From IMG/VR virus record IMGVR_UViG_3300010883_019551, positions 15,700-79,699 of that record: 64,000 bases of DNA, one strand, 5' to 3'. Within the stretch, counting starts at the first letter, position 1. Every line of letters starts with the position of its first letter. This stretch comes from a virus. The position numbers were made by a program, and so were the translations under genes. Positions 1 to 59,522 of this stretch are shown here, in pieces. The notes beneath the pieces were generated by a model, which was given only the letters and a program-made list of their open reading frames with translations, did not search any database and was not told the origin of the DNA.

Positions 1-431
1 CTAATCTCAACTGGAATATCCAGTGAGGTTATCATGGCAATTTGCATTCCATGATCGTTCGCCCATTGCAGTGCCTTAAGCACATCACTGGAATTTCCTG
101 ATGAAGATACTCCTAAGACTAAAGACTTTTTCATTTGTGACTTTGTTCTTGTGCCTGTCCTACAAAACAACCACTGTACCATCCACTGATCAAAGCTGGA
201 GTCATTGATCAAAGACGTCGCAACAACAGCGCTTCCGGGGCACATTGCATTTTTAGTTCCATTAGAAAGGCGTGTAATATCAACAGCAGCATGGTCAGCA
301 ACAGCTAAATTGCCACCATGTCCTAACACATAAATGTCATTGCAATTATTAAACTTTTCTTGTAGATCTTTCCAGTCTGGAGTGTTGACAACTCTTACAA
401 ACTTTTCATCAATATTTTCGAAATTAAGCAT
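1..431 (-). CDS. SIS-domain sugar-phosphate isomerase (GmhA/KdsD-like), 3' end beyond window
   Basis: Hand translation from ATG at 431 (not in ORF track): MLNFENIDEKF...IYVLGHGGNLAVADH...LGVSSSGNSSDVLKALQWANDHGMQIAMIT, i.e. SIS motifs GxGGx and SxSGNS. Confidence 0.8.
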   Translation of the reverse strand, partial: MLNFENIDEKFVRVVNTPDWKDLQEKFNNCNDIYVLGHGGNLAVADHAAVDITRLSNGTKNAMCPGSAVVATSLINDSSFDQWMVQWLFCRTGTRTKSQMKKSLVLGVSSSGNSSDVLKALQWANDHGMQIAMITSLDIPVEI

Positions 432-1116
432 TGTCAATTGCCTCTGTGTGTGATTCTATCATTAGCGTTGTGTCCATTCCCAATGCCAGAACTCCGTACC
501 CATCATATTTCGGTATCTCTCTAGCGATATCGGAAGGAATGTGTATACCCATTTTATGTTTCCCAACAGATGATACAACTTTGTCTAGATACTTGTGATA
601 TAAATCATGATCAAACTGACCTGGGATTCCCAAGCTTGATGTTAGGTCATAAGGGCCTACGAGATAATAGTCAAAATTTCGGCTAGCAATTTGTCCTATA
701 TTGTCGACTCCTTTCTTAGACTCAATCTGTGCTATCAATAGGGGCTTTTTTGTATCTAAAGGTTCTTGACCCCACTTATTTTGTCGAACTAGTCCCATGC
801 CTCTTCGGCCGGTGCTTTTTTGGCTTGGGTATAAACACATGCTAGTAATTTTTTCTGCCTGAGCATGTGTCTCAACAGTAGAGAAAATAAGGCCATCAGC
901 GCCTGAGTCTAGACAGATTCTTACCATAGTCACTGTTTCTTCCGCTAATCGAACAAAACATTTCTTTCCAGAAAGCGTCACAACTTGAATACACGATGTC
1001 AATGTTTCATTATTAAATGACCCATGTTCTGTGTCTATTACTACTCCGTCACAATCTAAATTTGCAAGAATTTCACTTACAATAGGCGATGGTATCTGCT
1101 GCCATGTCAGTATCAT
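424..1116 (-). CDS. HpcH/HpaI-family aldolase
   Basis: VIDTEHG, LDSGADG, QIES, VGPYDLTSSLG motifs. Confidence 0.9.
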   Translation of the reverse strand: MILTWQQIPSPIVSEILANLDCDGVVIDTEHGSFNNETLTSCIQVVTLSGKKCFVRLAEETVTMVRICLDSGADGLIFSTVETHAQAEKITSMCLYPSQKSTGRRGMGLVRQNKWGQEPLDTKKPLLIAQIESKKGVDNIGQIASRNFDYYLVGPYDLTSSLGIPGQFDHDLYHKYLDKVVSSVGKHKMGIHIPSDIAREIPKYDGYGVLALGMDTTLMIESHTEAIDNA

Positions 1117-1829
1117 ACAAATAACTCCTCTAGTTTTTTTCTAGGGTACACATGTAAAGCTCCTCCCACAGAGGCATTAAAAATTTTTACGCCCACATTT
1201 TCTGTCATTCTTTTCGCAAGCATATGAGCCTCATGCGAATGTATATCACCGAGTGGGTCATATTTTATAGGATTATACTTGGGGTCAAAATTTGAAGTAG
1301 TAGGCCCAAATCCTAAATCACAACCCAAAAGATATATTTCTTTGAATCCCATATAAGCTGCCAATTGTATACAAGTTAATAGAATCGTGCCCCACTTAGT
1401 TGCTGTCTCCATTGGATTATTTGACCAGTATTCATCAGGGTACGGATAACCTGCTCTTCCACCGGTGGATTTAATCATGTATACGTGATCTAATTTTTTG
1501 CAATCATTGAAAAAGCTTTTTGTTGTGCTATTGATGTCTACAGAATCGCTGTTAAAAAAGCATGGAATTTCTAGCTCGACGTTTTTATTTGCAGACAACA
1601 ACCAGTCATATCGGTAGATATCTGAGCTTACCATAACATAAAAACTGGGGTGCCAATTTCTTTTTTCGTATAGTAGGGATAATTTATTGCACCCAAATGT
1701 ATACTCATCTCGCAGAAGATCTAGATTTGTCTTGTTAAGACTTGGACCATTTCCCAGGATAAAACATCGTTCGCCTTTATGAATCCCTTTATATTCTTTT
1801 TTGTTTTTAACAATCTTCGCTTTTTTCAT
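1113..1829 (-). CDS. Maf/DUF115 (MptE-like fold) ulosonic-acid transferase-like protein
   Basis: CFILGNGPSL and AYMGFKEIYLLGCD motifs; start placed at ATG 1829 rather than 1865. Confidence 0.75.
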   Translation of the reverse strand: MKKAKIVKNKKEYKGIHKGERCFILGNGPSLNKTNLDLLRDEYTFGCNKLSLLYEKRNWHPSFYVMVSSDIYRYDWLLSANKNVELEIPCFFNSDSVDINSTTKSFFNDCKKLDHVYMIKSTGGRAGYPYPDEYWSNNPMETATKWGTILLTCIQLAAYMGFKEIYLLGCDLGFGPTTSNFDPKYNPIKYDPLGDIHSHEAHMLAKRMTENVGVKIFNASVGGALHVYPRKKLEELFV

Positions 1830-2529
1830 TCGTGCCCTCGATCGTCTTCCAGTACAAAATTTCACCTAAAGTGAATTGCCATTCATAGTCAATATCAAAT
1901 GATTCAAGCTCAGGAACAATATAGAGCGCAGGATCAGAATTCTTAAAAGATCCCATCCAAATATTGTCTTTGATTATATCTAGTCGACTTCCGTACATCG
2001 TATGGGCAGCTTCATATGTCGGTGCGACTGCCTTTGTGTTCATTATAGTCTGGCCTTCTGGCCAGGGTGTTACCATACTACCCTTGTCATTCCAAAAATA
2101 GTTTCTTTTGTCAATAACAGCCATAAGACCGCGCTCTTCTTGATCTAGATAAGCTTGAAAAAATCCATCAATTGACGCTGTTTTAAGCAGAGGATTGCAT
2201 GCACTTACTAATACAACATACTTGAACTTGTCCGGCAACTTATTGTGCCACTCGTATATTGTCTGGAGGCTGTTATCATTTGTAGCAGACTCCTCAGATC
2301 TTTCAAATATATTCACGCCGTGCTTGACAGCAACTTCCTTGAGCTCGTTTTCGTATACAGAAACAAAGAAATTTTCTTTTGGTATCACACTGGACGCCAA
2401 TATTTTTTTAATGCCAATCTCAAATAAAGATGAACCGCAAAACTCTCGAAGCATTTTTCGAGGAACGCGCTCAGAACATAGACGCGCCTGGATTATTACT
2501 GCAACTTCATCTACTGATTTCACTCCCAA
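1807..2529 (-). CDS. CMP-ulosonate synthetase-like cytidylyltransferase (NeuA/KdsB family)
   Basis: IIQARLCSERVPRKM N-terminal motif and DIDYEWQF C-terminal motif. Confidence 0.85.
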   Translation of the reverse strand: MGVKSVDEVAVIIQARLCSERVPRKMLREFCGSSLFEIGIKKILASSVIPKENFFVSVYENELKEVAVKHGVNIFERSEESATNDNSLQTIYEWHNKLPDKFKYVVLVSACNPLLKTASIDGFFQAYLDQEERGLMAVIDKRNYFWNDKGSMVTPWPEGQTIMNTKAVAPTYEAAHTMYGSRLDIIKDNIWMGSFKNSDPALYIVPELESFDIDYEWQFTLGEILYWKTIEGTNEKSEDC

Positions 2530-3308
2530 ACTCCTGATAATGCTGTTTTGATCTTGTCATGAGCGTTAACCAGCGTTTCAATTCTGTCAAGATTGATTTG
2601 ACAATCTCCATCGGAGACAGCGGAGGAAGGCTCAGGATGACATTCCGCAAATATTCCGTTATACTGAAACACGTCTGTTCCTAGCAAGAATCTCTCGGCA
2701 AGATCGCTGCGCCCTTGTATTCCATAAACATCTCTGCTTCTTTGGGTTGAGTGGGTGCAGTCAATAAAAACCTTATCATAGTGTTCTTGAAGTACGTCGA
2801 CAATGTCAAAGTCTACCAAGAGTTTGTGATAGCCATGCATGGTTCCACGCTCTGTAATCCATACTTCTGCATTTTCATTGGTCTCACGGACCTTATCAAC
2901 AGAAACCACTAGATTATTTGGTCCTAACCACTGTCCCTTTTTAATATTGACAACATCAAAATGTCTAGCACATTCTACTACAAGATCTGTCTGACGACAC
3001 AAAAATGCTGGGATTTGAATGCAATCAATAGTGCCCGCTAGCTTCTCAACTTGCCAGACCTCATGAACATCTGTGCATAGTCGAACACCAGGATGTCTAT
3101 TTTTTACTTCTCTAAAGATTTCTAGACTTTCCTCTAAGCCCGGACCTCTGCCTCCATGGAGTGAGGTTCTATTGGCTTTATCAAATGATGCCTTCAAGTA
3201 CCAATCACGGCCGTTCATAACTCGAGCTAGCTCGTCAGAAACCTTGAAATAGTTCTCTCTGTTTTCTATAGAACAGGGTCCTAAAACCCATGTTGTCTCA
3301 TCTTTCAT
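2520..3308 (-). CDS. kdsA: KDO-8-phosphate synthase
   Basis: GPCSIE, KASFDKANRTS, QIPAFLCRQT, KKGQ, ERG, DCTHS, ECHP..SDG. Confidence 0.92.
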   Translation of the reverse strand: MKDETTWVLGPCSIENRENYFKVSDELARVMNGRDWYLKASFDKANRTSLHGGRGPGLEESLEIFREVKNRHPGVRLCTDVHEVWQVEKLAGTIDCIQIPAFLCRQTDLVVECARHFDVVNIKKGQWLGPNNLVVSVDKVRETNENAEVWITERGTMHGYHKLLVDFDIVDVLQEHYDKVFIDCTHSTQRSRDVYGIQGRSDLAERFLLGTDVFQYNGIFAECHPEPSSAVSDGDCQINLDRIETLVNAHDKIKTALSGVWE

Positions 3309-3347
3309 CTTTAATTCCTTGTATACACATCAGTTGCGCTCATATCA

Positions 3348-4007
3348 TTATAGCCTGTCTAGGCCTGCTTTGTACACTTTCACACAGGTATTCCAGTCAT
3401 CTTCGTAATCAATGTCTAGAGACTCGGGAAAAGATGTCTCATAAAAGTATGGATTGTTCCCAACACGACGGCCTGTTTTCATAAATTTGTCTGCATCAAA
3501 CATGTAAAAGAGAGAGTTTTCTCTATAAACCTCTTTCAGCTCCTGAGTTGGCAACAATATTTCTGGATCGTGGTTGTGAGGACACATAACTCCTTTTTCA
3601 TTTGTCCATAGGCGTTCTTGTATTACATCACACGCTGTGACAGAATCATGATGTGCTAGTTTAGAAATTGCAGACTTCAAAGTTTCCGGTCTTATAAAAG
3701 GACTCGTGACATGAACCTGACAAATGGGGCCGGCTACTATGAACTGCATTATAAAATCGGTTATAAGACTACAAACAGAAATGTTATCTCCTAAAAGACT
3801 TGGGTTTCGCTCATATCCTCTTACATGGCTTAAGCTGGGATTGTCGGCGATTTCGTCTAATATCTTGTAGCTATCAGTATCAACATATACTTCAAAATCC
3901 CTAAGACGACTCAAGGTATGCACATAAAGTGGAACACCACCAAAGTCTCTAAAGTTTTTATTAGGTACTCTATTAGAATTCTCTTTTATGGGAACAAATA
4001 CCTTCAT
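3348..4007 (-). CDS. Second NeuA-like acylneuraminate cytidylyltransferase
   Basis: VPIKENSNRVPNKN, VTSPF, DIDYEDDW. Confidence 0.85.
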   Translation of the reverse strand: MKVFVPIKENSNRVPNKNFRDFGGVPLYVHTLSRLRDFEVYVDTDSYKILDEIADNPSLSHVRGYERNPSLLGDNISVCSLITDFIMQFIVAGPICQVHVTSPFIRPETLKSAISKLAHHDSVTACDVIQERLWTNEKGVMCPHNHDPEILLPTQELKEVYRENSLFYMFDADKFMKTGRRVGNNPYFYETSFPESLDIDYEDDWNTCVKVYKAGLDRL

Positions 4008-4807
4008 ACATACTTTACCCGCAAGTGTTCTGGCAGGTTAACTAAATGTTCAGGTGTAACTTTGATTATTTCTTCAAGGTGATCTAATTTCAGCTTACTG
4101 GTTTCGAATACTTCCTCGGGGAATAAAAGATTTATGTCACCTACTGATGCTCTGTTGATTGCATCTTCTCTTTCTTCAACAATAGCATGAGCCATCCATG
4201 ATGAAATAGCAGCATCATGGCTAAAACCATCATATAAACTCGGAGGCTCTTCTCGATAGTAGTGAGGTCTTAGACATGATTTAGAATCGTCGCCGCCAAA
4301 GAAGCTAAAGCCGTATGTTGTTGTAGGAAGCCCAGCTGCCTTATGCCCTTCCATGGCTGTGATAACTGCCAGATATCCCGTTGTCCAATTACACACCCTT
4401 CCATCTGATCTTCGTCTAAACTGGCGCTCAGGAAGTACTCTAACTAATGACTTTTCCATGTTGAGAATTGGCGGTCCGATCTCCTTGTACACAGGGCCGT
4501 CCCTTCTAGTGGCATCCCACTTTTTCTTAATCCACACTTCTCTAAACTGGGTTCCGTCACGAAACGCTATTTCATAGTTTTTGGCTCTGGCCCAAATATC
4601 TGTCTTTGTCCCAACATACTCTTCGTAACCTTTAATTTTATAGCTATTGAGCCTAACAACTGTTCGAAATTGATCAATAATTGGGCCATACCTGTTAAGA
4701 AGCACACTTGGTGCGTTTCCGATTATTATACAACCTGATGTCAGATAGTCTAGATCTCCGCCGTATTTTTCTTCCCAGTCTTTCTTTAGTGTTTTGTAGT
4801 CTGACAT
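4004..4807 (-). CDS. GT29-like (sialyltransferase-motif) glycosyltransferase
   Basis: Sialylmotif-L-like CIIIGNAPS...G..ID....VVRLN...VGTKT; S-like TTG; YGF; HYY. Confidence 0.7.
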   Translation of the reverse strand: MSDYKTLKKDWEEKYGGDLDYLTSGCIIIGNAPSVLLNRYGPIIDQFRTVVRLNSYKIKGYEEYVGTKTDIWARAKNYEIAFRDGTQFREVWIKKKWDATRRDGPVYKEIGPPILNMEKSLVRVLPERQFRRRSDGRVCNWTTGYLAVITAMEGHKAAGLPTTTYGFSFFGGDDSKSCLRPHYYREEPPSLYDGFSHDAAISSWMAHAIVEEREDAINRASVGDINLLFPEEVFETSKLKLDHLEEIIKVTPEHLVNLPEHLRVKYV

Positions 4808-5854
4808 TTATTCCTCGCTTAGTTTATCAATTATGTCTTTAGCAGCCATTACACATGTGTCTATCTTTCCAGAGAACACATTTATTATTTTTGGACCTGA
4901 AGATGACACGATGGTGGGTCTTCCATCAGTATCGTCCATGTTAGGTAGCACTGCTCTTACAGTGTACATGGACCCCTTGTATACCGCATCTGATAGAGAA
5001 GGGATATACTCTTTTCCCGTTTCAATAAATTTGGACCAGTTTGATTCAGCCGGATTGATAATAAACCCTCTGTTTAAGTCCTTGATCATGCTAACTGGTA
5101 CTTTGGGAAAGTGTCCTGTGTTGCTATAATGAATTGCGTGTACAACATTTCCCAAAAGAGACAGACCGCTGCGTCCGTACGGATCAACACACATAAAAGG
5201 ACCGTCCATAACAACTATGCTTTTATCCTGAATCTTACGGGGCATTTCTACCCCTATCTTTTCGCATACTTCGAACTGATAGTCAACCCTATTTTCCTCA
5301 TCTAACAGTTCATTAATATTAGCGTATGTACAGTTCAGAACAATATCAAAATTTTCAATATCCTTTTTTGTAAATTTAGTAGCCCAAAGCTTATTAACTC
5401 TAGAGCTCATGAGTCGTAGCCAACATGTATTATACACATTGTGATAGTCTAAGAGGGCTTCCCTTACTTTGACAGTCAATGCTATTTTATCATTATTTAC
5501 ATGCTCAAAGTTGTCTACTACTTCATAATCTAAATTAAACGTGTCACAAAACTTGAGGTACTCATCTGGAGACACCATGCTGCCTTCATTAGAAATGCAG
5601 TAATAGTGATCATAGTCATCTACAACAGACTTCCTATACTCATCTACAAAAAAATCAATTGAATTTAGTAATGCTGTAACTGTCTCAGGACTTCTTGGAT
5701 AATGATATCCTCGGTGAAGCCTTAACTGATTTGTACGAGAGGCAGATGTCATAATGTCTTTTCTAGACTCGTAAAGGGTTACGTCATGTTTATCACTTAG
5801 CTTAAGTGCTATGGTTACCCCAAATATGCCGGCGCCGACAACAGCGATCCTCAT
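4808..5854 (-). CDS. FAD-dependent oxidoreductase
   Basis: VVGAGIFG Rossmann motif, RLHRGYHYPRS. Confidence 0.85.
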   Translation of the reverse strand: MRIAVVGAGIFGVTIALKLSDKHDVTLYESRKDIMTSASRTNQLRLHRGYHYPRSPETVTALLNSIDFFVDEYRKSVVDDYDHYYCISNEGSMVSPDEYLKFCDTFNLDYEVVDNFEHVNNDKIALTVKVREALLDYHNVYNTCWLRLMSSRVNKLWATKFTKKDIENFDIVLNCTYANINELLDEENRVDYQFEVCEKIGVEMPRKIQDKSIVVMDGPFMCVDPYGRSGLSLLGNVVHAIHYSNTGHFPKVPVSMIKDLNRGFIINPAESNWSKFIETGKEYIPSLSDAVYKGSMYTVRAVLPNMDDTDGRPTIVSSSGPKIINVFSGKIDTCVMAAKDIIDKLSEE

Positions 5855-6702
5855 TGTCTTACTCCGTCGATGAACTTTAATATTTTCTTAGATAAATCTA
5901 GATTATTATAGTCCATGTTATTGTCGACTAAAGATAAAAAATTATCCCGCTGTATATCTAAAAGATTGTTGGCAGCGTTAGATGATACTTCAACTTCATC
6001 ATGCGCAAAGAATCCGGGGGTCCACATGTATAAACCGTTTTCTGTTTCATATACTACAGTCTTGTGTCTGGTTTTGCTTTTCCTATCAATATCAATTACA
6101 GCCTCGACTTCACCCATACTGAAGCTTAGAATACATGCGTCGTCTGAAATACTGCTTGATACTAAACTTTTCTCATGAAGATCCGGTGTGCCTAAGCTGT
6201 CAAAAAGTATTGATAGCTCATGACTGGCTAGATTTAAGAGAATATCATTATCAAAACTTCCCCATTTCTTCCAAACAAATGATGCCTTTTGGATCTTTGT
6301 GGTTGTCAAAGCATGCTTAAAAGACATGTAAGCAGGATCTGCAAGATACAAATAGTTTACTAGACAAACTTTATTATCTCGTGCGCATTCGATTCTTTCA
6401 ATATCTGGAACAGATGCGGCGGCCGGTTTCTCTAGCAAAATGTGCTTGTTGTGTTCTAGACACTGCACAGCAATATCTGGCAAATCGTCAATAGGCACAG
6501 CTATGACAATACAGTCAATCTCATCGTCGCCTAGTAGGTCGTCTATAGAAGAGAAAATTATATTGGGAAGTATTGTTCTTATTTTTTCTAGGTTGAGTTC
6601 ATTGCCGGCGGACACTACTCTTTTGACGTTTCTCTTTTTTGAGAAGCTTCTCGCAATATTACGCCCCCAGCGGCCAGATCCTATTATACCGACACTTTTC
6701 AT
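5851..6702 (-). CDS. Gfo/Idh/MocA-family oxidoreductase
   Basis: GIIGSGRWG and LLEKP motifs. Confidence 0.85.
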   Translation of the reverse strand: MKSVGIIGSGRWGRNIARSFSKKRNVKRVVSAGNELNLEKIRTILPNIIFSSIDDLLGDDEIDCIVIAVPIDDLPDIAVQCLEHNKHILLEKPAAASVPDIERIECARDNKVCLVNYLYLADPAYMSFKHALTTTKIQKASFVWKKWGSFDNDILLNLASHELSILFDSLGTPDLHEKSLVSSSISDDACILSFSMGEVEAVIDIDRKSKTRHKTVVYETENGLYMWTPGFFAHDEVEVSSNAANNLLDIQRDNFLSLVDNNMDYNNLDLSKKILKFIDGVRQ

Positions 6703-7616
6703 TAAAACAATTGTAACACGTGCTTGAAGTATTGGTCAATGCAATCTTCCCAATTTTTTGGCTCTAGAGCACTATTTTTTTCGAATTTGTTTTTCTTAAG
6801 TCGGTTTATAAGCTCATCGAATGATCTGTACACATGATTCTGTCCAACCATTTCAACAGCACCACCTGAATTCCACAGGGCATAAGTTGGAATTTCGCAT
6901 GCGAGGCTCTCAATGATATGATTGGGTCCAGGATCGTGTCGAGAAGCAGAAATATACACGTCATAACGGGAAAGCTTTTCGCCTAAGTCCTTTCCGAATG
7001 TAGGTGGAATTATAACAGTATTTTGAAACTTTGCTTTTGTTCGACCGATATAGGTGAATGTGTAATCATTATTGACTTCTAACCACTTATCGAGCATTTG
7101 ATACACATCTTGCCCCTTGAGCGGATTATCGGACCAATGATGCGTTACTAAGTTTATTTTTCCATTATCTAATTTTGGCCTGGGACAGAAGTGTTCCTTG
7201 TTTGTCCCAGAGTACACCACATGATTTCTGAGACATCTCCAATCTTCTTTGGTATGATAGTCCATTATCCAGTTAGAGATAAACACACAAAGGTCTGTAA
7301 CCCCACTGGCGGCGGTTATCACAGGATCTATATCGTTGTCTAAACCTTTTCGTTGATCACACTCATTAATTCTATAGACAACTTTTGTTTGTGGCCGAAC
7401 GGCTTTGTATTGTGCTATCTCATTAATCGATATTCCCATCTCATCATATCTTGGGTCAATCATAAAAATAAGATCAATACTTTCGTCCAGCTGATATACG
7501 GGCGTGAAGCCATACTTGGGTGCATATTTGTGGATAGCTTTAACAAAGTTGTTTCCGCCGCCCCACGGACCTTCTACCGGGTTTCTATTGATTAGTATTT
7601 TTTTGTTTCCACTCAT
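6702..7616 (-). CDS. GT4-like glycosyltransferase
   Basis: GGG N-terminal loop; DPGPNHIIESLAC (GT-B E/D-x7-E type). Confidence 0.8.
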   Translation of the reverse strand: MSGNKKILINRNPVEGPWGGGNNFVKAIHKYAPKYGFTPVYQLDESIDLIFMIDPRYDEMGISINEIAQYKAVRPQTKVVYRINECDQRKGLDNDIDPVITAASGVTDLCVFISNWIMDYHTKEDWRCLRNHVVYSGTNKEHFCPRPKLDNGKINLVTHHWSDNPLKGQDVYQMLDKWLEVNNDYTFTYIGRTKAKFQNTVIIPPTFGKDLGEKLSRYDVYISASRHDPGPNHIIESLACEIPTYALWNSGGAVEMVGQNHVYRSFDELINRLKKNKFEKNSALEPKNWEDCIDQYFKHVLQLF

Positions 7617-9904: not shown

Positions 9905-9913
9905 GTAAATAAC

Positions 9914-12650: not shown

Positions 12651-12662
12651 GGTTACCTTCGA

Positions 12663-13745: not shown

Positions 13746-13749
13746 TGTT

Positions 13750-23105: not shown

Positions 23106-23215
23106 AGTATACTGTATCCTGATTCTGTTACTGTCTTAAGAGAATCTATCTTCTTAGTTATAAGAAATAAACTGTCTCTCAGAACTGTATAAGAAGAAAT
23201 ATTCTTTACTACAGA

Positions 23216-23243
23216 ATTATACACTGTCAGGAACAGGTGTAAC
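23216..23243 (-). promoter_or_regulatory. Putative promoter of the glycan cluster (GTTACA-N16-TATAAT)
   Basis: Perfect -10 with a degenerate -35, about 110 nt upstream of the first cluster gene. Confidence 0.55.
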
Positions 23244-23312
23244 CTTTCTATGTCTTAAGAGTATTCTATCTAATCTATTATATTAATAGAGCGAGAGGTT
23301 CAGTATGAGAGA

Positions 23313-27776: not shown

Positions 27777-30700
27777 TATTCACTCTCCTCTATTGGTTCA
27801 AGCATCATCTTAAATTTCTTTCCTGTTGTGTTGTTAATAACACAAAGATAGTCAGCTTCCTCAACAATAGTCCAATCACCTTTGTCATTTTTGAGATTCA
27901 AGTCACCGGTGTAAATATTTCGGAACCGAGATGATTCAGACCCTAAATCGTAAGTGTTGTTAGTCGCTGGAAGAATGTGCCCGGTAAACTGATGAGCGGC
28001 ATCTGCATTACTATTTACGTAATTAATAACTGTTGTATTCGGAGAGCTAATATAGCGTGACGTTCCGCCAAACTCCAAGTTTTTGGTAGCAGCCATCCTT
28101 AACGACGCGTTATTTCCCTGAAGCCTCATAACTTCTGTTGGAGTACCGCCGTCGTTAACACCAAAAATGATGTTCCCATCAGAGACTTCACCCAGTATCG
28201 ATACTAAGCTACTATTGGCAGCCTTAGTAATATCATATCCAGGGAGTATTGAGAATACGTCTACACCCGAATTATTCTTTCCAATTAGAGGTGCTTGATA
28301 GCCTACCGCTTCGAAGGAAGCAGATAGAGCATATTGTACAGTACCAGGTGCTGCTCCCCAAGAATTAAATCTTGCGCCTGCGACCAGTGATCCGGACGCA
28401 ACAACATCGCCACCAAACGCGGCGACCTTAGTGTCTGATGAAGAGCCTCTATCAATGGTACCGGAGACATAAAAGTAGATGTCACTTGCAACTTGTTCCG
28501 CATATTGATTAGCAGAACTTAGTGAGAACGATCCCGTGCTTCTAATTTTAAGAGTATCAGGTGACTGAGTTGCTAGCATCTCGAATGCTGTGCTAATAGC
28601 ACCTATCGAGGAAAGATCTGTTAGAGTTTTTACGCCCCCTGTAGCTGTATCTCTAAATGTAAGATCATTACTTACGCGTTGGATATAATTGTTGGCATCA
28701 CCAAATCTGATGTAGCTATTTGTCTGTAGGTCTAGATTAGTAAGTGCTAGCGCGTTAGGCGTTAATGTTCCACTAACAAAAACATCTCCCGAGTAATAAG
28801 TCTCTTCGGATTCAACATTCAATAAGTGCGATGCAAGTATTAGGTCATTTTGCTTACCCGAAACAGTAGAGTTTGAGAGTGAAACGTTAGCGCTTCCGAA
28901 CCGTACTTGTTTTCCGGGTGCCACCTTGAGTGCAGAAACATCTCCGTCAAGCCTCATAACCTCTGTCATGGTCCCGCCGTCGTTCACCATGAAGATCATG
29001 TCTTTGTCGGAAACAGAAGAAGAGAGATATAAATCAGAAGATCTGCTTCTAATAGAACCTATCTCAGTACCGCTATCTTTAAGAACCCAGTTACCTAAAT
29101 CAGAGTCTAACCAGATATCTGACTCTGAATCTAGAATAACAAAACCACCCTTAGCTGTTAGACCAACTCCATCGCCCTCAATCTTTTCACCATCATTTCC
29201 AAACGTAAGGCCGATACTAGTAGGAATATTAATGTTTGCTGCGGCTGTCAGGTTAATGTCGGCGCCGGCAATCGTCAAATTAGTTCCATCGCCCTCGATC
29301 TTCTCACCATCGTTACCGAATGTAAGACCAATGTTAGCTGGGATATTAATGTCACCCCCTGCACCAACACCAAAGTGAATATCAGTTCCGTCTCCGTAGA
29401 TATGCTCTTCAGCTGTACCAAGTTGTATTTGCTTACTACCTGAAATGGCAAGGGCTGAGGTGCTGCCATCGAGCCTGAATATCTCTGTCATGGCGCCGGC
29501 GTCATTCACCATAAAGATCATGTCTTTATTTTGCTGTGAAGAAGAAAGATATAGATTGCCTGCTCTGCTTCTAATAGACCCAAGCTCATACGACCCATCT
29601 TGAAATACCCAGTTGCCCGAATCAGAGTTCAACCAGATATCTGACTCTGAATCTAGAATAACAAAACCACCCTTAGCGGTCAATCCAAATCCGTCGCCTT
29701 CAATCTTCTCACCATCGTTACCAAACGTGAGACCTATTTCTGATGGGATGTTGATATCACCACCCACCTCAATAACAAAATCAAGCTCAGATGCAGAAAC
29801 TATTAACTTGGTTCCGTCGCCTTCAATCTTCTCACCATCGTTACCGAATGTAAGACCAATGTTAGCTGGAACGTTGATGTCTCCTCCGGCTCCGACTGTG
29901 ATCGTTAGATCTGTCCCATCAGACTCAATCTTTTCTCCGCCGCCCATGAGGATTCCGACATTAGCAGGAATCACCACATCTTCTGTCGCAGTGAGATTAA
30001 TATTGTTTCCGGATATTGTTAAGTCTGTGCCATCACCTGATATTTTCTCCCCATCGTTTCCAAATGTTACACCAATGCCAGAAGGTATGTTGACATTAGC
30101 TTCTGCAGTTAGATTAATGTCACCTCCCTGAATTGTCAGATTTGTTCCGTCACCCGAAATATTCTCGCCGTCGTTACCGAAAGTCAAACCAATATTGGCC
30201 GGAATGTTTATATCCCCACCCGCTCCGACACCAAAGTGAATATCAGTTCCGTCTCCGTAGATATGCTCTTCAGCAGCTCCAAGCTGCAATTGTTTGCTGG
30301 CAGCGATCTTCAATGCTGAAACATCACCATCTAGTCTAAAGACCTCAGTTGGTGTGCCTCCATCATTCACCATAAAGATCATGTCTTTGTCTGAAACAGA
30401 AGCTGACAGATACATGTCGCCTGCAACGCCCTGTATCTTTCCGTATTCCGACAACGATCCTGATGCGAAGATAACTTCTCCGGAGTCCGGACGGAGCTTC
30501 AAGTAACCCATGGTTTCAAAGTCTACGCCAGAGTGATCACCATTCCATGTTTTGTTGAGATTCAGCCGCGCGTTGAGCACACCATTTCTCAAGAAGTCGA
30601 TATCAGAACCAGCAGCATCGAGAATAATGTCTCCCCCAGAATCGAGCGTAATTTTTCCAGCTGCGTCGATCTCTAGATTATTACTTCCGTCTACTTCGAT

Positions 30701-33700
30701 TTTGTTGGTGTCAGCACCGAATGTAAGACCAATTTGAGAAGGAATATTAATGTCTGCCTCTGCAGTTAGATTAATGTCTCCTCCCTGAATTGTCAGATTC
30801 GTTCCATTGCCTTCGATCTTCTCACCATCAGCACCAAACGTGAGACCAATGTTAGCTGGGATGTTAATATCACCTCCGGACGCTAAGCCGAAGTTAATGT
30901 CATCGCCATCGCCGTAGATGTGCTCAGCACCGTCGTCATATAGATCAACCCGCCTTACTCGAACTGTACCAGGGTTACCAGAAAAGACCTCAGATGCATT
31001 GGTGGCATCAGGAATAAAAGTAAAGACACCACCCGAATCATCGTAACCCATGAAACCGGTCTTGCCGGCGGATCCATTATGCCAGTGGAATTCAATACCA
31101 CGATCCTTGTTATCATCAGATCCGGACGCTAGCTCTCCACCAATAACAATGACAGGATCATCAACACTAATTGTTGTGCTGTTAACTGTTGTTGTTGTGC
31201 CGTTGACTGTGAGGTCACCTTGAACTGTAAGGTTGTCGTTAACCGTAGTCTCTGACGTCGCATGACCAATGCTGATTGCTGTTCCTGATGTGGCGCCTAC
31301 AATAACTCTTGCTACACCGGCTCCAGCGTTGGAAGCATCAATCGTAAGATTCTTTGTGCTGCCGTGATTCGCCGCCATTGTCAAGTTAACTGAGTCAGCC
31401 GCATCTAGAGATAGAGTTGAAGTCCCGTCTATAGTAATAGCCCCGGACGCGTCAATGTCTAGAGCAACAGCATCGAAGTCTACATTACCAGATCCGTCAT
31501 AAGCCAGCGCTTCAGTATCATCTCCAATAGATGCCCCGGCGTCACCACTGATTACGATCGTAGACGTGCTGTCCACAGTAACTGCACCAGAAGCATCAAT
31601 ATCCAGTGAGGTTGAGTTCATGTCGACAGGAGCAGCTGTTGTTGCACCTATCTGAATAATAGCTGCGCTATCAATCGCCACAGCACCCACAGCGTCAATA
31701 TCAATTGTGCCTGCAGTTGCATTAAGTTTCAATGCCGATGCACCGGCACCCGCTGATGTAAGACGAAGTTCCTGTGTACTGCCACCAGCCACCGCGATGT
31801 CTAAGTCTTTTCCTGAAGCTGTAACGGTAATATTTGAGTCGTCAACAGCGTCTATAGATAATGTACTACCACCAAGAATATCGATTGCGCCCGACGCGTC
31901 AATGTCCAATGTAACAGCATCGAAGTCTACATTACCAGATCCGTCGTAAGAAAGGCCTTCAGTATCATCGCTAAGAGTCGCGCCTCCATCGCCACTAATT
32001 ACGATAGTAGATGTGCTATCCATGGTGATTGCGCCCGACGCGTCAATGTCCAATGTTGTTGAGTCAATATCAATAGGTGTGTCTGTTTCAGTACCAATGT
32101 AGACTCCGGCAGATCCGTCTAAGTTTAGGCGACCTGCGTCTGCATCGATGTCGATCACTCCTTGCGCATCGAGAACTATGTTTCCATCTGCAATTACATT
32201 AAAGTGCGCAGATGCAGCATCATCATCTATTGTTGTGAATGTTGTGACACCGTGTTGTTCTATTTTAATTTCTAGCTTGTCGCCTGTGTCTTGATCATCA
32301 TGCAATGTAAGCTTTGTATTATCAACATCAAAGTCGAAGATCGTGTCAGTGGCATCGCTCATTACAACGTTACCGCCGTCGGCACTTAGATGAATATTTC
32401 TACCAGCGTCTAGTGTAATACCACCAGCATCAGCTTGAACAAGCACAGCCGCGACGCTGGCGCCAGCATCTTCAGCACCTTGAGTATTTTTAACAGTGAT
32501 TCTTTCTGAAGTTCCGGCGTTTGTAGTGATATTGATCGCGCCAGTGTTGTTAAACGTCGAGTCTAGACTTAAAGGTCCAGCAGTATCAACTGAAATTCCC
32601 GTTGTTCCGGCATCAATGTTTATTCCACCGGCAGCATTCGATGCGTTAATAGTGATAGCATTTATATCAGCTTCGCCGGCACCGATATTAACTGATCCGG
32701 CTGTGTTGACAATATCAATATCTTCACTGGCTGCACCAGCAGCTAATATATCAATACCACCAGCAGCAGCATTTATTGTAATAGCATCAGGTTCGTTTTC
32801 TGTTGATAAGAGATTAATCCCCGTATTAGAAACTAAGTCTAAGTTTTCCCCTGATGCTCCTCCAGCAACTGTAATATCAATACCACCCGCTGTGGCACTT
32901 ATTTGCAAAGCATCAGCAGCTGTTCCAGCAGATGACAAGATTAAACTAGCATCAACACCGGCGTCCATTGCTATGGTGAAATCACCATCAGCAGTAGCAG
33001 TATGACTGATATTTGAAGCGCCTCCTGCTGAGTCAACAGAAAGAGTTCCCTCTGTATCTAGCGTTACGTTACCCGCTGCATTGATATCAAGTGTCGATGA
33101 CTCCATAACAACTGGGACATCTGCCTCAACTCCGATATTGATTCCGGTTGAACCATCTAGACTTAGTGCACCTGCATTCGCATCAATGTCAACGGCACCG
33201 TCTGCAACAACGGTAAAGTCAGCTGCCCCTGCTGCAGCGTCTACAGTTGTAATTGTTAAATCACCATTTGTACCGACGCCCAACGTGGAGTAATCATCTG
33301 CATTATTAGAAAGCTTAAGCTGCACTGTGGATCCGTAGACTTCTAGTAAAGAATCAGGATCTGCAACACCTATACCCACTTTGCCGCTGTCTAGAATTCG
33401 CATTCTTTCTGTAGACGCAGTGTCATCAGCTTGACCAATTGGTGATGTTACAAAGACAAGATCTGTTCCCTTAGCAGTAGAGCTGTGAGCCTCCGCCGCG
33501 TAGGCAATAATAGCTGCACCTGCTTCTGTAACAGAGTTAGGTACATTTCCATCTTCGCTATCAAATCCAATCCCGCCTAGAATGTCCCCGTCAACCGTTT
33601 CTCGATCAGCTCTGACAATCATAATACCGTTATCATTAGCAGATCCCGAAACCATTACCTGGAGTCTATTACTGGGAGAGTTTGTCCCTAACCCGATTCT

Positions 33701-34327
33701 ATCTGAGCTAGCATCTACAAAGAACGTGTACGGCTTAGTCGATGTATGAATTACAAAGTCATTTCCAGGAACAGGAGTTCCACCAGCTCCGGATCCAGCG
33801 CCGCCAATAGTTGTGTAATGTGTTGTTCCGCTAGAAATATTAAATACTGCGCCTTGATTGACATGAAGCGATCCTGAGATGTGTGCCCTATGAGGCACCA
33901 TAAGGTCGCCTCGAACGGCTTCATCGACTTGCATGACCTGACGTTCAGCATACAATGTTCCGGAGATTACAACATCTCCACCGAATAGAACAACTTTACC
34001 GCCGTGATAGTCATCTTCAAGTGCCCGGCCTGGTGAGCCAGGATGAGATCCCGTTAGAACTCTGTGAAAATTATTTCCAGCTGTTCCATCATAATATCCC
34101 CACTGAGGGTGAGACTGCGCGCCGGAAACAAACATCCATACGTCTTTTCCCACGTTATTAAGCATGGAAGGTTCTAGTGTTCCGTCGTATTTTTGAGTTC
34201 CGCCACTGTTAACTGCATGTCGATGGTCATATACAGCTAGCCCTAGATAAGGAGTTCCAGCTGCGATACCACCCGATCCAATTAACTTGGATGTTCTTAT
34301 CTGTTTGCTTCTAAAGTCTTTTGCCAT
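27776..34327 (-). CDS. Very large tail fibre-like virion protein (2183 aa) with internal repeats
   Basis: DINIPANIGLTFGNDGEKIEGDG and LDIDASGA repeats; C-terminal YDLGS..RFRNIYTGDL..WTIVE..GKKFK fibre-tip motif. Confidence 0.78.
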   Translation of the reverse strand: MAKDFRSKQIRTSKLIGSGGIAAGTPYLGLAVYDHRHAVNSGGTQKYDGTLEPSMLNNVGKDVWMFVSGAQSHPQWGYYDGTAGNNFHRVLTGSHPGSPGRALEDDYHGGKVVLFGGDVVISGTLYAERQVMQVDEAVRGDLMVPHRAHISGSLHVNQGAVFNISSGTTHYTTIGGAGSGAGGTPVPGNDFVIHTSTKPYTFFVDASSDRIGLGTNSPSNRLQVMVSGSANDNGIMIVRADRETVDGDILGGIGFDSEDGNVPNSVTEAGAAIIAYAAEAHSSTAKGTDLVFVTSPIGQADDTASTERMRILDSGKVGIGVADPDSLLEVYGSTVQLKLSNNADDYSTLGVGTNGDLTITTVDAAAGAADFTVVADGAVDIDANAGALSLDGSTGINIGVEADVPVVMESSTLDINAAGNVTLDTEGTLSVDSAGGASNISHTATADGDFTIAMDAGVDASLILSSAGTAADALQISATAGGIDITVAGGASGENLDLVSNTGINLLSTENEPDAITINAAAGGIDILAAGAASEDIDIVNTAGSVNIGAGEADINAITINASNAAGGINIDAGTTGISVDTAGPLSLDSTFNNTGAINITTNAGTSERITVKNTQGAEDAGASVAAVLVQADAGGITLDAGRNIHLSADGGNVVMSDATDTIFDFDVDNTKLTLHDDQDTGDKLEIKIEQHGVTTFTTIDDDAASAHFNVIADGNIVLDAQGVIDIDADAGRLNLDGSAGVYIGTETDTPIDIDSTTLDIDASGAITMDSTSTIVISGDGGATLSDDTEGLSYDGSGNVDFDAVTLDIDASGAIDILGGSTLSIDAVDDSNITVTASGKDLDIAVAGGSTQELRLTSAGAGASALKLNATAGTIDIDAVGAVAIDSAAIIQIGATTAAPVDMNSTSLDIDASGAVTVDSTSTIVISGDAGASIGDDTEALAYDGSGNVDFDAVALDIDASGAITIDGTSTLSLDAADSVNLTMAANHGSTKNLTIDASNAGAGVARVIVGATSGTAISIGHATSETTVNDNLTVQGDLTVNGTTTTVNSTTISVDDPVIVIGGELASGSDDNKDRGIEFHWHNGSAGKTGFMGYDDSGGVFTFIPDATNASEVFSGNPGTVRVRRVDLYDDGAEHIYGDGDDINFGLASGGDINIPANIGLTFGADGEKIEGNGTNLTIQGGDINLTAEADINIPSQIGLTFGADTNKIEVDGSNNLEIDAAGKITLDSGGDIILDAAGSDIDFLRNGVLNARLNLNKTWNGDHSGVDFETMGYLKLRPDSGEVIFASGSLSEYGKIQGVAGDMYLSASVSDKDMIFMVNDGGTPTEVFRLDGDVSALKIAASKQLQLGAAEEHIYGDGTDIHFGVGAGGDINIPANIGLTFGNDGENISGDGTNLTIQGGDINLTAEANVNIPSGIGVTFGNDGEKISGDGTDLTISGNNINLTATEDVVIPANVGILMGGGEKIESDGTDLTITVGAGGDINVPANIGLTFGNDGEKIEGDGTKLIVSASELDFVIEVGGDINIPSEIGLTFGNDGEKIEGDGFGLTAKGGFVILDSESDIWLNSDSGNWVFQDGSYELGSIRSRAGNLYLSSSQQNKDMIFMVNDAGAMTEIFRLDGSTSALAISGSKQIQLGTAEEHIYGDGTDIHFGVGAGGDINIPANIGLTFGNDGEKIEGDGTNLTIAGADINLTAAANINIPTSIGLTFGNDGEKIEGDGVGLTAKGGFVILDSESDIWLDSDLGNWVLKDSGTEIGSIRSRSSDLYLSSSVSDKDMIFMVNDGGTMTEVMRLDGDVSALKVAPGKQVRFGSANVSLSNSTVSGKQNDLILASHLLNVESEETYYSGDVFVSGTLTPNALALTNLDLQTNSYIRFGDANNYIQRVSNDLTFRDTATGGVKTLTDLSSIGAISTAFEMLATQSPDTLKIRSTGSFSLSSANQYAEQVASDIYFYVSGTIDRGSSSDTKVAAFGGDVVASGSLVAGARFNSWGAAPGTVQYALSASFEAVGYQAPLIGKNNSGVDVFSILPGYDITKAANSSLVSILGEVSDGNIIFGVNDGGTPTEVMRLQGNNASLRMAATKNLEFGGTSRYISSPNTTVINYVNSNADAAHQFTGHILPATNNTYDLGSESSRFRNIYTGDLNLKNDKGDWTIVEEADYLCVINNTTGKKFKMMLEPIEESE

Positions 34328-34337
34328 TTTTAGCTCC

Positions 34338-34619
34338 CTAAACTCTCTCTAGAATTTGGCCCATTGCTTGGTAATTAAACGTGATCAAAGGTTCTGAAGA
34401 TATTGTTACAACCCACTGCCCTGTACTTTTTGAGACACTCTTTATAATAACATTTGCATTACCAAAAGCATCTGCAGCCGCTGTACTATCCGCATCACCC
34501 TGCCCAATTACAGTAATGATTGGAGGGTAGTAGTATTGACCCGTAAGTGTTACCTGTCCCACTCCAGTCGCGTCTGTTGACCCGTTTCCCGTTTCCATTG
34601 AAAAGTTCGTAAGTCTCAT
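34338..34619 (-). CDS. Small putative structural protein
   Basis: 93 aa beta-rich ORF translationally coupled within the fibre block. Confidence 0.5.
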   Translation of the reverse strand: MRLTNFSMETGNGSTDATGVGQVTLTGQYYYPPIITVIGQGDADSTAAADAFGNANVIIKSVSKSTGQWVVTISSEPLITFNYQAMGQILERV

Positions 34620-34963
34620 TATTGATCCATAAGAATTGCATGCACCGCCACTTTGCCCGTGAAGGCGTCAGAGGCCCCGATCACGACGTGAGTTCGTGCG
34701 ACCTGCTTTACATAAATATTGACGTTCTGTGTATCTCCGGTATCTCCTTCATTTACAATGAGGGCACATGTCACGCTTGGAGACCCGGAGAACGCCGATT
34801 CATAATTGTGTGTAACTTCATCTACATTATCGAATGTTACTTCAAAAACTTCCAGCTCGAATCTTTGATTACTATAAAGCTGTGTTTTGGGCAGATGTCT
34901 AGTATATGGATATTTTTTTGAAAGACGCGCAGCGTCTCTAACCTTTAGCTTAAGTGTAGCCAT
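34619..34963 (-). CDS. Small putative structural protein
   Basis: F..SPSVT motif like fibre-associated small beta domains; first gene of the block, GGAG RBS. Confidence 0.5.
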   Translation of the reverse strand: MATLKLKVRDAARLSKKYPYTRHLPKTQLYSNQRFELEVFEVTFDNVDEVTHNYESAFSGSPSVTCALIVNEGDTGDTQNVNIYVKQVARTHVVIGASDAFTGKVAVHAILMDQ

Positions 34964-43709: not shown

Positions 43710-43727
43710 GTTTATGGTTCTCCGATT

Positions 43728-45038: not shown

Positions 45039-45039
45039 T

Positions 45040-50054: not shown

Positions 50055-50083
50055 TTTATGACTCCTAAGTTTTTGTAAAAGGG

Positions 50084-59521: not shown

Positions 59522-59522
59522 A

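Follow-up and report, generated by a model that had tools for sequence, protein, structure and literature searches.

The window, a 64,000-nucleotide stretch of DNA covering bases 15700-79699 of a 79.7-kb contig, opens inside a long island of glycan genes. According to contig gene calls and Pfam matches, the whole island is about 35.5 kb long and holds about 40 co-oriented, mostly overlapping genes (only 4 of the 39 gene junctions exceed 20 nt); it continues for 12.4 kb past the window start, and lies between two fibre-like giant genes upstream and a baseplate hub and wedge module downstream. The contig represents one piece of the roughly 290-kb genome of an uncultured marine phage of T4 type, a jumbo phage in the T4 superfamily. 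The features of the island and of its fibre side are as follows:

3..437, minus strand: SIS-domain sugar-phosphate isomerase, N-terminal 145 of 333 aa (Pfam SIS/SIS_2)
424..1116, minus strand: HpcH/HpaI-family pyruvate aldolase (PF03328, E 2.8e-19)
1113..1865, minus strand: MptE/Maf-like (former DUF115) domain protein, 250 aa (PF01973, 46.6 bits, exceeding the cut-off)
1807..2529, minus strand: CMP-ulosonate synthetase 2 (PF02348, E 1.2e-14)
2520..3308, minus strand: KdsA, Kdo-8-phosphate synthase (NF003543 equivalog, 244.4 bits against a cut-off of 242; PF00793, 148 bits)
3348..4007, minus strand: CMP-ulosonate synthetase 1 (PF02348, E 1e-16)
4004..4807, minus strand: GT29-like (sialyltransferase-like) soluble protein (PF00777, E 4e-11, residues 25-71 only)
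4808..6702, minus strand: FAD oxidoreductase (348 aa) and GFO/IDH/MocA oxidoreductase (283 aa), sugar tailoring (Pfam DAO, GFO_IDH_MocA)
6702..7616, minus strand: GT4-like transferase, weak match (Glyco_trans_1_4, E 6e-4)
7585..9904, minus strand: two proteins of 406 and 373 aa, no family match
9914..11554, minus strand: NodU/CmcH-type O-carbamoyltransferase (PF16861, C-terminal domain, 214 bits; PF02543)
11544..12650, minus strand: Glf, UDP-galactopyranose mutase (PF03275, 257 bits)
12663..13745, minus strand: 360-aa protein, no family match, homologues in two related loci (L006, L022)
13750..16478, minus strand: heptose donor module of cupin (126 aa), HAD-like protein (112 aa), HldA-type kinase, HldC adenylyltransferase and HldD epimerase
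16475..17308, minus strand: GT9 heptosyltransferase-like protein, 277 aa, with a short N-terminal (acceptor) half (PF01075, E 3e-19)
17299..21184, minus strand: GT4 (308 aa), two methyltransferases (241 aa each), GT2 (249 aa) and a methyltransferase (267 aa) (Pfam)
21177..23105, minus strand: 642-aa two-domain transferase (compact GT-B plus GT-A), the first island gene
23106..23312, minus strand: 207-nt gap with promoter-like GTTACA-N16-TATAAT, extended -10, TGTATAAT
23313..27776, minus strand: fibre-like giant protein, 1487 aa, pI 4.2, Gly/Asp/Ser/Thr-rich repeats
27776..34327, minus strand: fibre-like giant protein, 2183 aa (PHROG 697 'structural protein', E 3e-33)
34338..34963, minus strand: two small genes (93 and 114 aa) leading the fibre genes

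Over its full length the island encodes KdsA, NeuB, the HpcH aldolase, three CMP-ulosonate synthetases, HldA, HldC and HldD, Glf, one carbamoyltransferase, five methyltransferases and at least 11 glycosyltransferase domains, together with four genes without a recognisable family. The transferase and tailoring families within the window are GT9, GT4, GT2, the GT29-like protein, the MptE/Maf-like domain and three SAM methyltransferases; the part outside it contributes NeuB, the third CMP-synthetase, two UGDH-like genes, an epimerase, a GT2, two GT4, FkbM, DUF4910 and a PD-(D/E)XK nuclease. An earlier note, made from the letters of the window, had described about 27 tightly coupled, co-oriented genes adjoining fibre genes on the same strand, and this holds: all 27 genes in 1-23105 are on the minus strand, as are the 1487- and 2183-aa genes next to them. 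The 23-kb cluster of that note is a real run, but it is only the in-window part of the larger island. Its list of donor enzymes stands for the LPS inner-core set, since KdsA and HldD pass their equivalog cut-offs (HldD with 330 bits against an NCBIfam cut-off of 275), and HldC (159 bits) and the HldA-type kinase (153 bits) are strong though under cut-off. Outside that set, Glf matches its family well. The weak members are the “HAD phosphatase”, matched at E 0.002, and the SIS isomerase, which scores just 35 bits against GmhA (its gene crosses the window start, at contig 15135-16136, and is 86% identical to the copy in the sister contig G006). The two CMP-ulosonate synthetases are supported by PF02348, but neither reaches the KdsB or PseF cut-off, these being the closest families of synthetase 2.

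Among the less certain members, the HpcH/HpaI aldolase may be a third ulosonic-acid condensing enzyme, and the MptE/Maf-like protein is a candidate ulosonate transferase; the top PDB sequence match of the latter, 5mu5 (deposited as uncharacterised, to our understanding a flagellin glycosyltransferase of the Maf type), lacks significance at E 0.6. The GT29-like protein, 85% identical in G006, scores 43 bits as a whole against a Pfam cut-off of 23, with an alignment confined to residues 25-71, the sialylmotif L region, which also matches ST6GalNAc2 and ST3Gal1 in the PDB. Searches of Pfam, PHROG and PDB sequences gave no match for the 406- and 373-aa proteins, while the neighbouring weak GT4-like transferase has homologues in 16 related loci. 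The gene order GT9-(HldD)-HldC-HldA-cupin is repeated in three relatives (L006, L011, L017), and the cupin is presumably an isomerase of the heptose donor module. Only the C-terminal half of the GT9 protein aligns to WaaC, WaaF, WaaQ and TibC/Aah, always under cut-off and at model positions of about 150-310, so it is not a full-length WaaC/WaaF-type enzyme with an acceptor domain; its assignment as a TibC/Aah autotransporter heptosyltransferase was rejected (24.9 bits against a TIGR04414 cut-off of 200). Homologues of the 249-aa GT2 and the 308-aa GT4 occur in 29 and 22 related loci. The predicted model of the 642-aa fusion transferase (pLDDT 92) has the peptide S-glycosyltransferases SunS and ThuS as top PDB matches (E 1e-9). 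To judge from its promoter-like motif, the 207-nt gap is probably the start of the island operon, and TGTATAA or TTGTACA with an A-run recurs upstream of the fusion gene in relatives; promoter and terminator scans as such gave chance-level results. Both giant fibre-like proteins are acidic, repetitive and rich in Gly, Asp, Ser and Thr: the 1487-aa protein has partial homologues in 11 related loci, and by tblastn the 2183-aa protein matches structural proteins with YadA domains in T4-like cyanophages. The 114-aa gene sits ahead of fibre genes in 17 related loci.

Comparison of 43 related loci revealed a fixed frame with a swapped interior. In each, the fusion transferase (kept in 43 of 43, at 46-68% identity) is followed by 0-31 kb of variable sequence, then by the PD-(D/E)XK nuclease, two GT4 transferases (GT4b and GT4a) and the baseplate hub, and the sugar content between these ends is replaced from relative to relative, the heptose, Kdo, nonulosonate and Galf/carbamoyl blocks moving independently. 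The island is thus real, and its content is swapped between related phages; in the sister contig 27 island and flanking genes are intact at 58-92% identity, which we count as a sign of selection. The relatives carry T4-type gp23 capsid genes and baseplate genes, confirming that the contig is viral. Downstream of the island are a hub/spike-like protein (fold matches weak, Z 5.5-6.3), a gp6-like wedge (phrog_219, E 2.7e-10) and further giant genes, and on this contig the hub genes show translational coupling with GT4b and GT4a, from which late expression may be supposed; in a complete relative (G002), inspection by eye showed a hairpin with a T-run after it ahead of GT4b. The adjacency to fibre genes, by contrast, is not conserved: at least 8 of the 43 loci have the island directly after phoH, and in one of these the fibre-like genes are about 40 kb away. 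Lysyl-tRNA ligase is a near-core gene of moraphages (Perez-Hernandez et al. 2025, PMC12619734), and the present lineage does not share this feature: PF00152 is absent in four large relatives, including the complete one, while control genomes matched.

Genes for export are missing from the island and beyond it. Scanned by hydropathy, the contig yielded no polytopic membrane protein; Wzx, Wzy, WaaL, Gtr and ABC membrane proteins are absent from the contig, from the complete 293-kb genome of G002 and from 785 kb of related loci, and no chain-length regulator, exporter, flippase, polymerase or ligase was found in the islands of the 43 loci. This search combined hydropathy with Pfam on the candidates rather than an HMM scan of every gene, so that a monotopic initiating transferase could slip past it in relatives. 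Among the 40 island genes there is no Pfam match to a polyprenyl-phosphate initiating transferase, a WaaA-type Kdo transferase or Lpx genes, and the remaining unscanned ORFs of the window (the longest 215 aa) are too short for Lpx or WaaA. The earlier claim that the window lacks export and lipid A genes is therefore borne out, and extends to the contig and a complete relative. What does not follow is the conclusion drawn from it, that the glycan must be built on phage proteins: LPS-core transferases act on host lipid A-Kdo and use host MsbA and Lpt, and such enzymes need no phage exporter. The interpretation as a whole keeps its viral contig, its fibre adjacency at this locus and its absence of export machinery, but loses that argument for a phage-protein acceptor.

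Most likely, this jumbo phage of the T4 superfamily carries a hypervariable glycan-assembly island within its tail module, the one for host recognition. That the island's sugars go onto virion protein we put at a little under even chances. The phage enzymes would make activated rare sugars in the cytoplasm (CMP-Kdo, CMP-nonulosonate, ADP-L,D-heptose, UDP-Galf and UDP-uronate, with a third CMP-ulosonate probably among them), and at least 11 soluble transferase domains would add these sequentially to a phage structural protein, with no lipid carrier or flipping, methyl and carbamoyl groups being put on afterwards. The likeliest acceptors would be the acidic giant fibres or baseplate proteins, and the product would cover the host-contacting part of the virion with sugars that differ between strains. 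The position between fibre and baseplate modules and the coupling of the conserved GT4s to hub genes support such a target. The absence of exporter genes fits it as well, and the conserved transferases have acidic pI values (5.0-6.4), which DNA- or membrane-binding enzymes typically do not. The Maf-like domain, a GT9 acceptor half that is short and unlike that of LPS enzymes, and a GT-A domain nearest to peptide-glycosylating SunS/ThuS would also fit, although GT-A and GT-B fold matches say nothing about the acceptor. Against it stand the loci, at least 8 of 43, that have the island without neighbouring fibres, and we know of no evidence for a glycoprotein in any T4-type phage. Like TibC/Aah and Maf systems, the island pairs ADP-heptose with a GT9-type enzyme and a CMP-nonulosonate with a Maf-type domain, beside repetitive fibrous proteins; its Maf-like protein, however, is short, with 250 aa where Maf transferases have about 600-660 aa, and the PDB match of this protein falls short of significance. 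Mycobacteriophages glycosylate capsid and tail proteins with their own cytoplasmic transferases and without export machinery, as reported for siphoviruses of Actinobacteria, which use 2-4 transferases and draw their sugar donors from the host (Freeman et al. 2023, cited in PMC12619734). Those enzymes have no known sequence relation to the island enzymes, and the acceptor is proven there and only a candidate here.

A more general proposal, which we advance tentatively and with rather less than even expectation, is that a widespread T4-type jumbo lineage coats its fibres or baseplate with an LPS-core-like glycan (Kdo, heptose, nonulosonate and Galf, methylated and carbamoylated), made wholly in the cytoplasm by soluble transferases acting in sequence, from modules that related phages swap like bacterial O-antigen genes; the outcome would be a “virion serotype” system with its genes placed between those for fibres and baseplate. 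Tens of kb of sugar genes lie beside fibres in marine T4-type phages, the published guess being a change of the host surface; to our knowledge their role has been shown by nobody. The contig and its relatives make a clean test case, with a three-transferase frame tied to the baseplate, a swappable interior of 0-31 kb and a complete genome free of exporters. If the virion is the target, phages would own a variable sugar coat, which would matter for host range, grazing and adsorption and for recognition by immune or defence systems; and either a virion or a DNA target would change the annotation of “LPS genes” in viral metagenomes as auxiliary metabolic genes.

The foremost alternative, in our view unlikely, is that the phage enzymes lengthen or modify glycans of the host, those of the lipid A-core or lipid-linked ones, on the inner side of the membrane, which host MsbA/Lpt, Wzx or an ABC system would export, so that the changed cell surface blocks superinfection or stops progeny from sticking to debris. 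Kdo, L,D-heptose and GT9 typify an LPS inner core, and the lack of membrane proteins is compatible with this reading, because LPS-core transferases are peripheral proteins. Envelope change is also the published reading of fibre-plus-transferase islands in pelagimyophages (PMC7029224) and of kdsA/kdsB with 13 transferases in cyanophage S-SCSM2R (PMC12801897). Yet a WaaA-type Kdo transferase, lipid A genes, an initiating phosphoglycosyl transferase and a ligase are absent both here and in the complete relative, and the GT9 lacks its usual acceptor half. Moreover, the coupling of the conserved transferases to baseplate genes suggests late expression, when export to the outer membrane would gain little, and 40 genes are a heavy investment for altering a cell about to lyse.

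The earlier note had missed a further alternative, one that we consider unlikely: that 5-hydroxymethylcytosine takes the place of cytosine and the island transferases hang Kdo, heptose or short chains on DNA against restriction, the content varying under pressure of modification-dependent nucleases. Four relatives (G001-G004) each have a thymidylate-synthase-family gene whose best phage matches are T-even gene 42 (gp42-like dCMP hydroxymethylase); in each, Asp stands where E. coli ThyA has Asn177, as it does in T4 gp42, and the residue at this position plays a role in base specificity. In G002 the gene lies beside a DnaE-type polymerase and a dUTPase-family gene. As all GT2 and GT4 genes of these four relatives are located in the island, at least one island transferase could act on DNA, and the nuclease fixed in the frame is consistent with this. 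Phages do have LPS-enzyme-like transferases that decorate 5hmC with Kdo, heptose, uronic acids and di- or trisaccharides (Pyle et al., 10.1101/2023.12.21.572611), and the clusters of these enzymes resemble the island in soluble LPS-enzyme-like transferases, own sugar-activating genes, Kdo and heptose, and (in relatives here) a 5hmC source. Those clusters, however, have 3-8 genes by a cytosine methyltransferase and a TET-type oxygenase, for one to three sugars (Cell Rep 2024; 10.1101/2023.12.21.572611), whereas here 40 genes lie in the tail module and the gp42-type enzyme is far off. In G002 the island is at 82-113 kb and the hydroxymethylase at 225 kb, some 110 kb between the island and the nucleotide-metabolism genes, so the transferases are not beside base-modifying genes. 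With 11 or more transferase domains, five methyltransferases and a carbamoyltransferase, the island goes far beyond any known DNA glycan (were DNA the target, this would be by far the most elaborate such system known), and the acidity of the conserved transferases likewise speaks against it. Searches for gp56 dCTPase and T4 beta-glucosyltransferase families gave no match, though with silent controls, and so did that for a TET-type oxygenase, its control silent as well. For the source phage, a hydroxymethylase is presumed from the relatives, because that genome region is off this contig. Two near-complete phages with Kdo modules, G008 (190 kb, with nuclease-GT4b-GT4a homologues at 34-40% identity) and G009 (143 kb), have no thymidylate-synthase-family gene at all, so that a hydroxymethylase is not required elsewhere.

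Some other cytoplasmic product (a free oligosaccharide, a glycolipid or a small molecule bearing sugar), or a mixed island whose modules have different acceptors, is highly unlikely: the independent movement of the modules and the four genes without a family would suit it, but we know of no phage precedent, and the fixed three-transferase frame beside baseplate genes points to a single macromolecular acceptor.

Fibre-plus-glycan islands in marine myophages have already been published, and the present island, for which we favour a virion target, is a variant of that kind. Large T4-like cyanophages with “LPS” or cell-wall-modification genes include P-SSM2, S-SCSM1 and S-SCSM2R (PMC12801897); S-SCSM2R, a cultured marine myophage, has kdsA, kdsB, UDP-glucose dehydrogenase, epimerases and 13 glycosyltransferases (PMC12801897). 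That set is scattered, whereas ours forms one coupled run with additional heptose and nonulosonate routes, in a phage whose host is non-cyanobacterial as far as the absence of psbA shows. The host recognition cluster (HRC) of pelagimyophages and cyanomyophages, with published bounds at VrlC and the neck gene gp14 (Zaragoza-Solas et al. 2020, PMC7029224), is similarly hypervariable, tens of kb long and inside the structural region of marine T4-type phages (PMC7029224), with fibre genes mixed with many glycosyltransferases and LPS-type sugar genes (rfaE, UDP-glucose dehydrogenase), the roles being putative in both. The present island shares the tail-region position in a T4-type phage and, over the 43 loci, non-syntenic content between conserved flanks. 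It differs in its lineage (a jumbo phage of about 290 kb with tubulin and the PrkA/YeaH/SpoVR set, and no psbA), in its fixed frame, with the fusion at one end and nuclease-GT4b-GT4a-hub at the other, and in a far richer content, with three ulosonate routes, Glf and a carbamoyltransferase.

The cluster reported in the earlier note is real, and larger than the 23 kb and ~27 genes given there: it spans ~35.5 kb and 40 genes. Every gene in window 1-34963 is on the minus strand, the window covers positions 15700-79699 of one 79.7-kb viral contig, on which a further 12.4 kb of the cluster lies past the window edge, and four of the 39 junctions across the 40-gene unit exceed 20 nt. The enzyme list proposed earlier was mostly confirmed by Pfam and NCBIfam, but several assignments are weaker than claimed. 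KdsA and HldD reach the NCBIfam equivalog cut-off, and HldC and an HldA-type kinase are strong family matches; Pfam and NCBIfam also place in the window Glf, a NodU/CmcH-type carbamoyltransferase, GT9, GT4 and GT2 proteins, a GT29-like protein, an MptE/Maf-like protein, an HpcH aldolase, two CMP-sugar synthetases, oxidoreductases, and three methyltransferases. Among the weaker assignments, the “HAD phosphatase” is a 112-aa protein with a match of E 0.002, the SIS protein bears a faint resemblance to GmhA, the nearest family of the cytidylyltransferases is PseF (none reaches the KdsB cut-off), and the GT29 match is confined to the motif-L stretch. The part of the island beyond the window contains:

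NeuB
third CMP-synthetase
2-hydroxyacid dehydrogenase
DUF4910/M28 protein
FkbM protein
GT2 transferase
two UGDH-like genes
epimerase
PD-(D/E)XK nuclease
two GT4 genes (GT4b and GT4a)

The two UDP-glucose-dehydrogenase-like genes are adjacent (L001:7557-9289, contig coordinates, outside the window) and encode proteins of 287 and 290 aa, both having the N-terminal and central domains and lacking the C-terminal domain; they are 83-86% conserved in the sister contig, G006. A 126-aa cupin (window 13750-14130) is always found beside HldA and HldC, also in the related loci L006, L011, L017, and L020, and GmhA is absent from all these neighbourhoods. Since the order GT9-(HldD)-HldC-HldA-cupin recurs, the cupin may be the heptose pathway's isomerase, a candidate non-orthologous sedoheptulose-7-phosphate isomerase. 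PDB sequence searches gave no match for four island proteins of unknown family and weak matches only for the GT9, Maf-like, GT29-like, and fusion proteins (the last being the 642-aa GT4-GT2 transferase encoded by the first island gene, window 21177..23105, minus strand); neither the cluster nor the flank had a megablast match among 50,697 phage records.

Using the 642-aa transferase to search IMG/VR, we found 43 related loci (46-68% identity), on contigs that include ones of 242-293 kb; one of these, G002 (293,409 bp), is complete with terminal repeats. T4-type gp23 capsid genes are present in the large related genomes; the gp23-type major capsid paralogues (~640 aa) are in tandem, two per genome, at 176.5-180.1 kb in G002 and 139.3-142.9 kb in G004, another large relative. 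The large related genomes contain no psbA, which makes a cyanobacterial host unlikely, and identity with the published “moraphages” was rejected because lysyl-tRNA ligase is absent from these genomes. A homologue search with the gene after the island returned 693 relatives, many from ocean surveys, so the lineage is common.

Synteny maps of the relatives revealed a fixed frame around a variable interior. The frame starts with phoH, optional small gene(s) and fibre genes, and then the 642-aa transferase; it ends, after the interior, with the PD-(D/E)XK nuclease, GT4b, and GT4a, past which are a small membrane-anchored protein, two small proteins, and a 536-aa protein. The interior measures about 18-31 kb in large genomes (31 kb on the present contig) and is missing in four loci (L012, L038, L040, and L041). 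Heptose, Kdo, Galf/carbamoyl, and UDP-uronate modules are variably present among relatives, and the ulosonate block (KdsA, NeuB, HpcH, three synthetases, the GT29-like and the Maf-like protein) is absent from the 43 loci. This block is retained gene for gene in G006 (where 27 island and flanking genes are intact, at 58-92% identity), and its intactness there indicates that it is under selection. Another 30 viral contigs carry KdsA together with a synthetase and a small HAD gene, in several cases adjoining the nuclease, GT4b, and GT4a.

The two giant genes beside the island (1487 and 2183 aa) encode acidic, repetitive proteins with a high content of Gly, Asp, Ser, and Thr, and the 2183-aa protein has matches both in a PHROG structural family and among the YadA-domain structural proteins of T4-like cyanophages; the label “fibre-like” is therefore reasonable. 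A pattern search of IMG/VR for the 1487-aa fibre found no relative, and G006 stops before the region of this gene. Cluster and fibres, which the earlier note found adjoining in the window, commonly adjoin in relatives too, but in at least eight related loci the island directly follows phoH with no fibre genes between (in one such genome, fibre-like genes are ~40 kb distant), so the adjacency is common, not obligatory. The flank opposite the fibres is baseplate. A language model gave a lead from the 536-aa protein to gp5/VgrG-type spikes, and its structural model (pLDDT 72) has repeated weak matches (Z 5.5-6.3) to phage baseplate hub/spike proteins, including those of cyanophage A-1(L), phiKZ, P2 gpV, P1, PhiTE, and Pa193. 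In G006 its homologue is followed by a 615-aa protein matching baseplate wedge PHROG 219 (E 2.7e-10), and then by a run of giant co-oriented genes (up to 3376 aa). GT4b and GT4a are translationally coupled to the hub-side genes on the present contig; in G002, a hairpin with a T-run, taken by eye for a terminator, lies between the variable interior and GT4b/GT4a.

Because the island lies between fibre and baseplate genes, is coupled to hub genes, and belongs to a lineage in which any lipid-linked or export step is absent throughout, we tentatively favour glycosylation of phage structural proteins; virion glycosylation, as first proposed, is one of three live readings. The high-confidence model of the 642-aa protein (pLDDT 92) has a compact GT-B domain and a GT-A domain, and the solved structures closest to it are those of SunS and ThuS, which are peptide S-glycosyltransferases, followed by teichoic-acid and glycosaminoglycan enzymes; as a pointer to the acceptor, this predicted likeness is suggestive only. 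Proof of virion glycosylation exists for mycobacteriophages only (Freeman et al. 2023, cited in PMC12619734).

Remodelling of the host envelope by the island enzymes seems to us somewhat unlikely. The lack of an exporter, noticed earlier in the window, extends to the whole genome of G002 when flippase, ligase, and Gtr genes are sought by hydropathy and Pfam. Hydropathy scans found no polytopic membrane proteins on the whole contig or in the islands of the 43 loci (785 kb); in G002, several hydrophobic segments occur only in one protein of 1585 aa and in a few small proteins, and Pfam placed no multi-segment protein in a Gtr, Wzx, Wzy, ligase, or ABC family. The sole lipid-related membrane enzyme seen is a small membrane protein of the fatty-acid hydroxylase family (L046:15070-15498, in G002). 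The further step, from a missing exporter to a phage-protein acceptor, fails: exporter absence does not decide the acceptor, since the transferases of the LPS core are peripheral enzymes, working on the host's lipid A-Kdo and relying on the host for export. Pelagimyophages and cyanomyophages have hypervariable islands in which fibre genes occur together with many transferases and with sugar genes of LPS type; these “host recognition clusters” (mean 34-45 kb) were read as modifying the host O-chain (PMC7029224), and a cultured cyanomyophage with kdsA, kdsB, and 13 transferases was given the same host-modification reading (PMC12801897). Like them, the present island combines hypervariable sugar genes with nearby fibres in a T4-type phage; it is unusually rich, but of a kind already known and not a new category.

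DNA hypermodification, in which island transferases would add sugars to 5hmC, is a rival overlooked in the earlier note and seems to us unlikely. All four large relatives (G001-G004) carry a thymidylate-synthase-family gene whose best phage matches are T-even gene 42:

L056:16301-17143 (G002 225301-226146), gp42-like gene
L061:587-1576, gp42-like gene
L062:706-1392, gp42-like gene
L063:837-1682, gp42-like gene

In the alignment, the gene of G001-G004 has Asp at the E. coli ThyA Asn177 position, as in T4 dCMP hydroxymethylase; the residue at this position has a role in base specificity. Judged from sequence, this points to cytosine hydroxymethylation (or methylation) in the DNA of the lineage. 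The G002 gene comes after a DnaE-type polymerase and is followed by DUF6378, a dUTPase-family gene, and a myo-inositol-1-phosphate-synthase-like gene, and all GT2 and GT4 genes of G001-G004 are confined to the island. Since Pyle et al. (10.1101/2023.12.21.572611) showed that 5hmC can carry Kdo, heptose, uronic acid, and short chains, added by phage transferases related to LPS enzymes, DNA is a serious candidate acceptor for at least one transferase. DNA as the main role is harder to square with the size of the island and its tailoring content, or with its location in the tail module, at a distance of about 110 kb in G002 from the genes for nucleotide metabolism; the conserved transferases are also acidic, isoelectric points being weak evidence as to the acceptor. 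Moreover, two near-complete Kdo-module phages (190 and 143 kb), one of them also having nuclease-GT4b-GT4a homologues, lack a thymidylate-synthase-family gene, and a third has a true ThyA. Searches for T4 gp56 dCTPase, the T4 beta-glucosyltransferase family, and TET/JBP gave no match, but the controls were silent too, so these genes may nonetheless be present.

Within the island, scans for sigma-70 promoters and for terminators gave no excess over shuffled sequence and were therefore not used for expression timing. In L002-L043, TGTATAA or TTGTACA, then an A/T run, recurs ahead of the gene for the 642-aa transferase and may be a lineage-specific promoter. The extended -10 motif TGGTATAAT is enriched upstream of G002 genes, including the polymerase gene, and defines no clear class for island genes there.

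The contig flank contains PhoH, tubulin, tmRNA, a PrkA/YeaH/SpoVR set, a helicase, and a ClpP-type protease. The tubulin/FtsZ-like gene (window 36736-37941; a weak Pfam match, 68-80% identical in relatives) adjoins the tmRNA (38010-38372), whose tag is ANNDNYEYALAA. The PrkA(YeaG)/YeaH/SpoVR set is complete (window 41772-46239), and its PrkA-like protein is 30-33% identical to genes of Thermus phages, Ralstonia phage RsoM2USA, and huge metagenomic phages. Two tRNA genes are present:

window 50082-50156, tRNA-Gly
window 51910-51985, tRNA-Thr

Sugar/nucleotide genes are also found outside the island (window 46284-47760, 50165-50863, and 53171-53992): a HAD-Nudix fusion, a cytidylyltransferase-like protein (PHROG “heptose kinase/adenylyltransferase”), an MT-A70 adenine methyltransferase, and a eukaryote-type phosphomannomutase. 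Across window 58000-64000, G+C reaches 0.46-0.52, up from about 0.40, and the small ORFs have no homologues in the 43 loci; this stretch may be another module or a mobile element, or may result from a join made in assembly.
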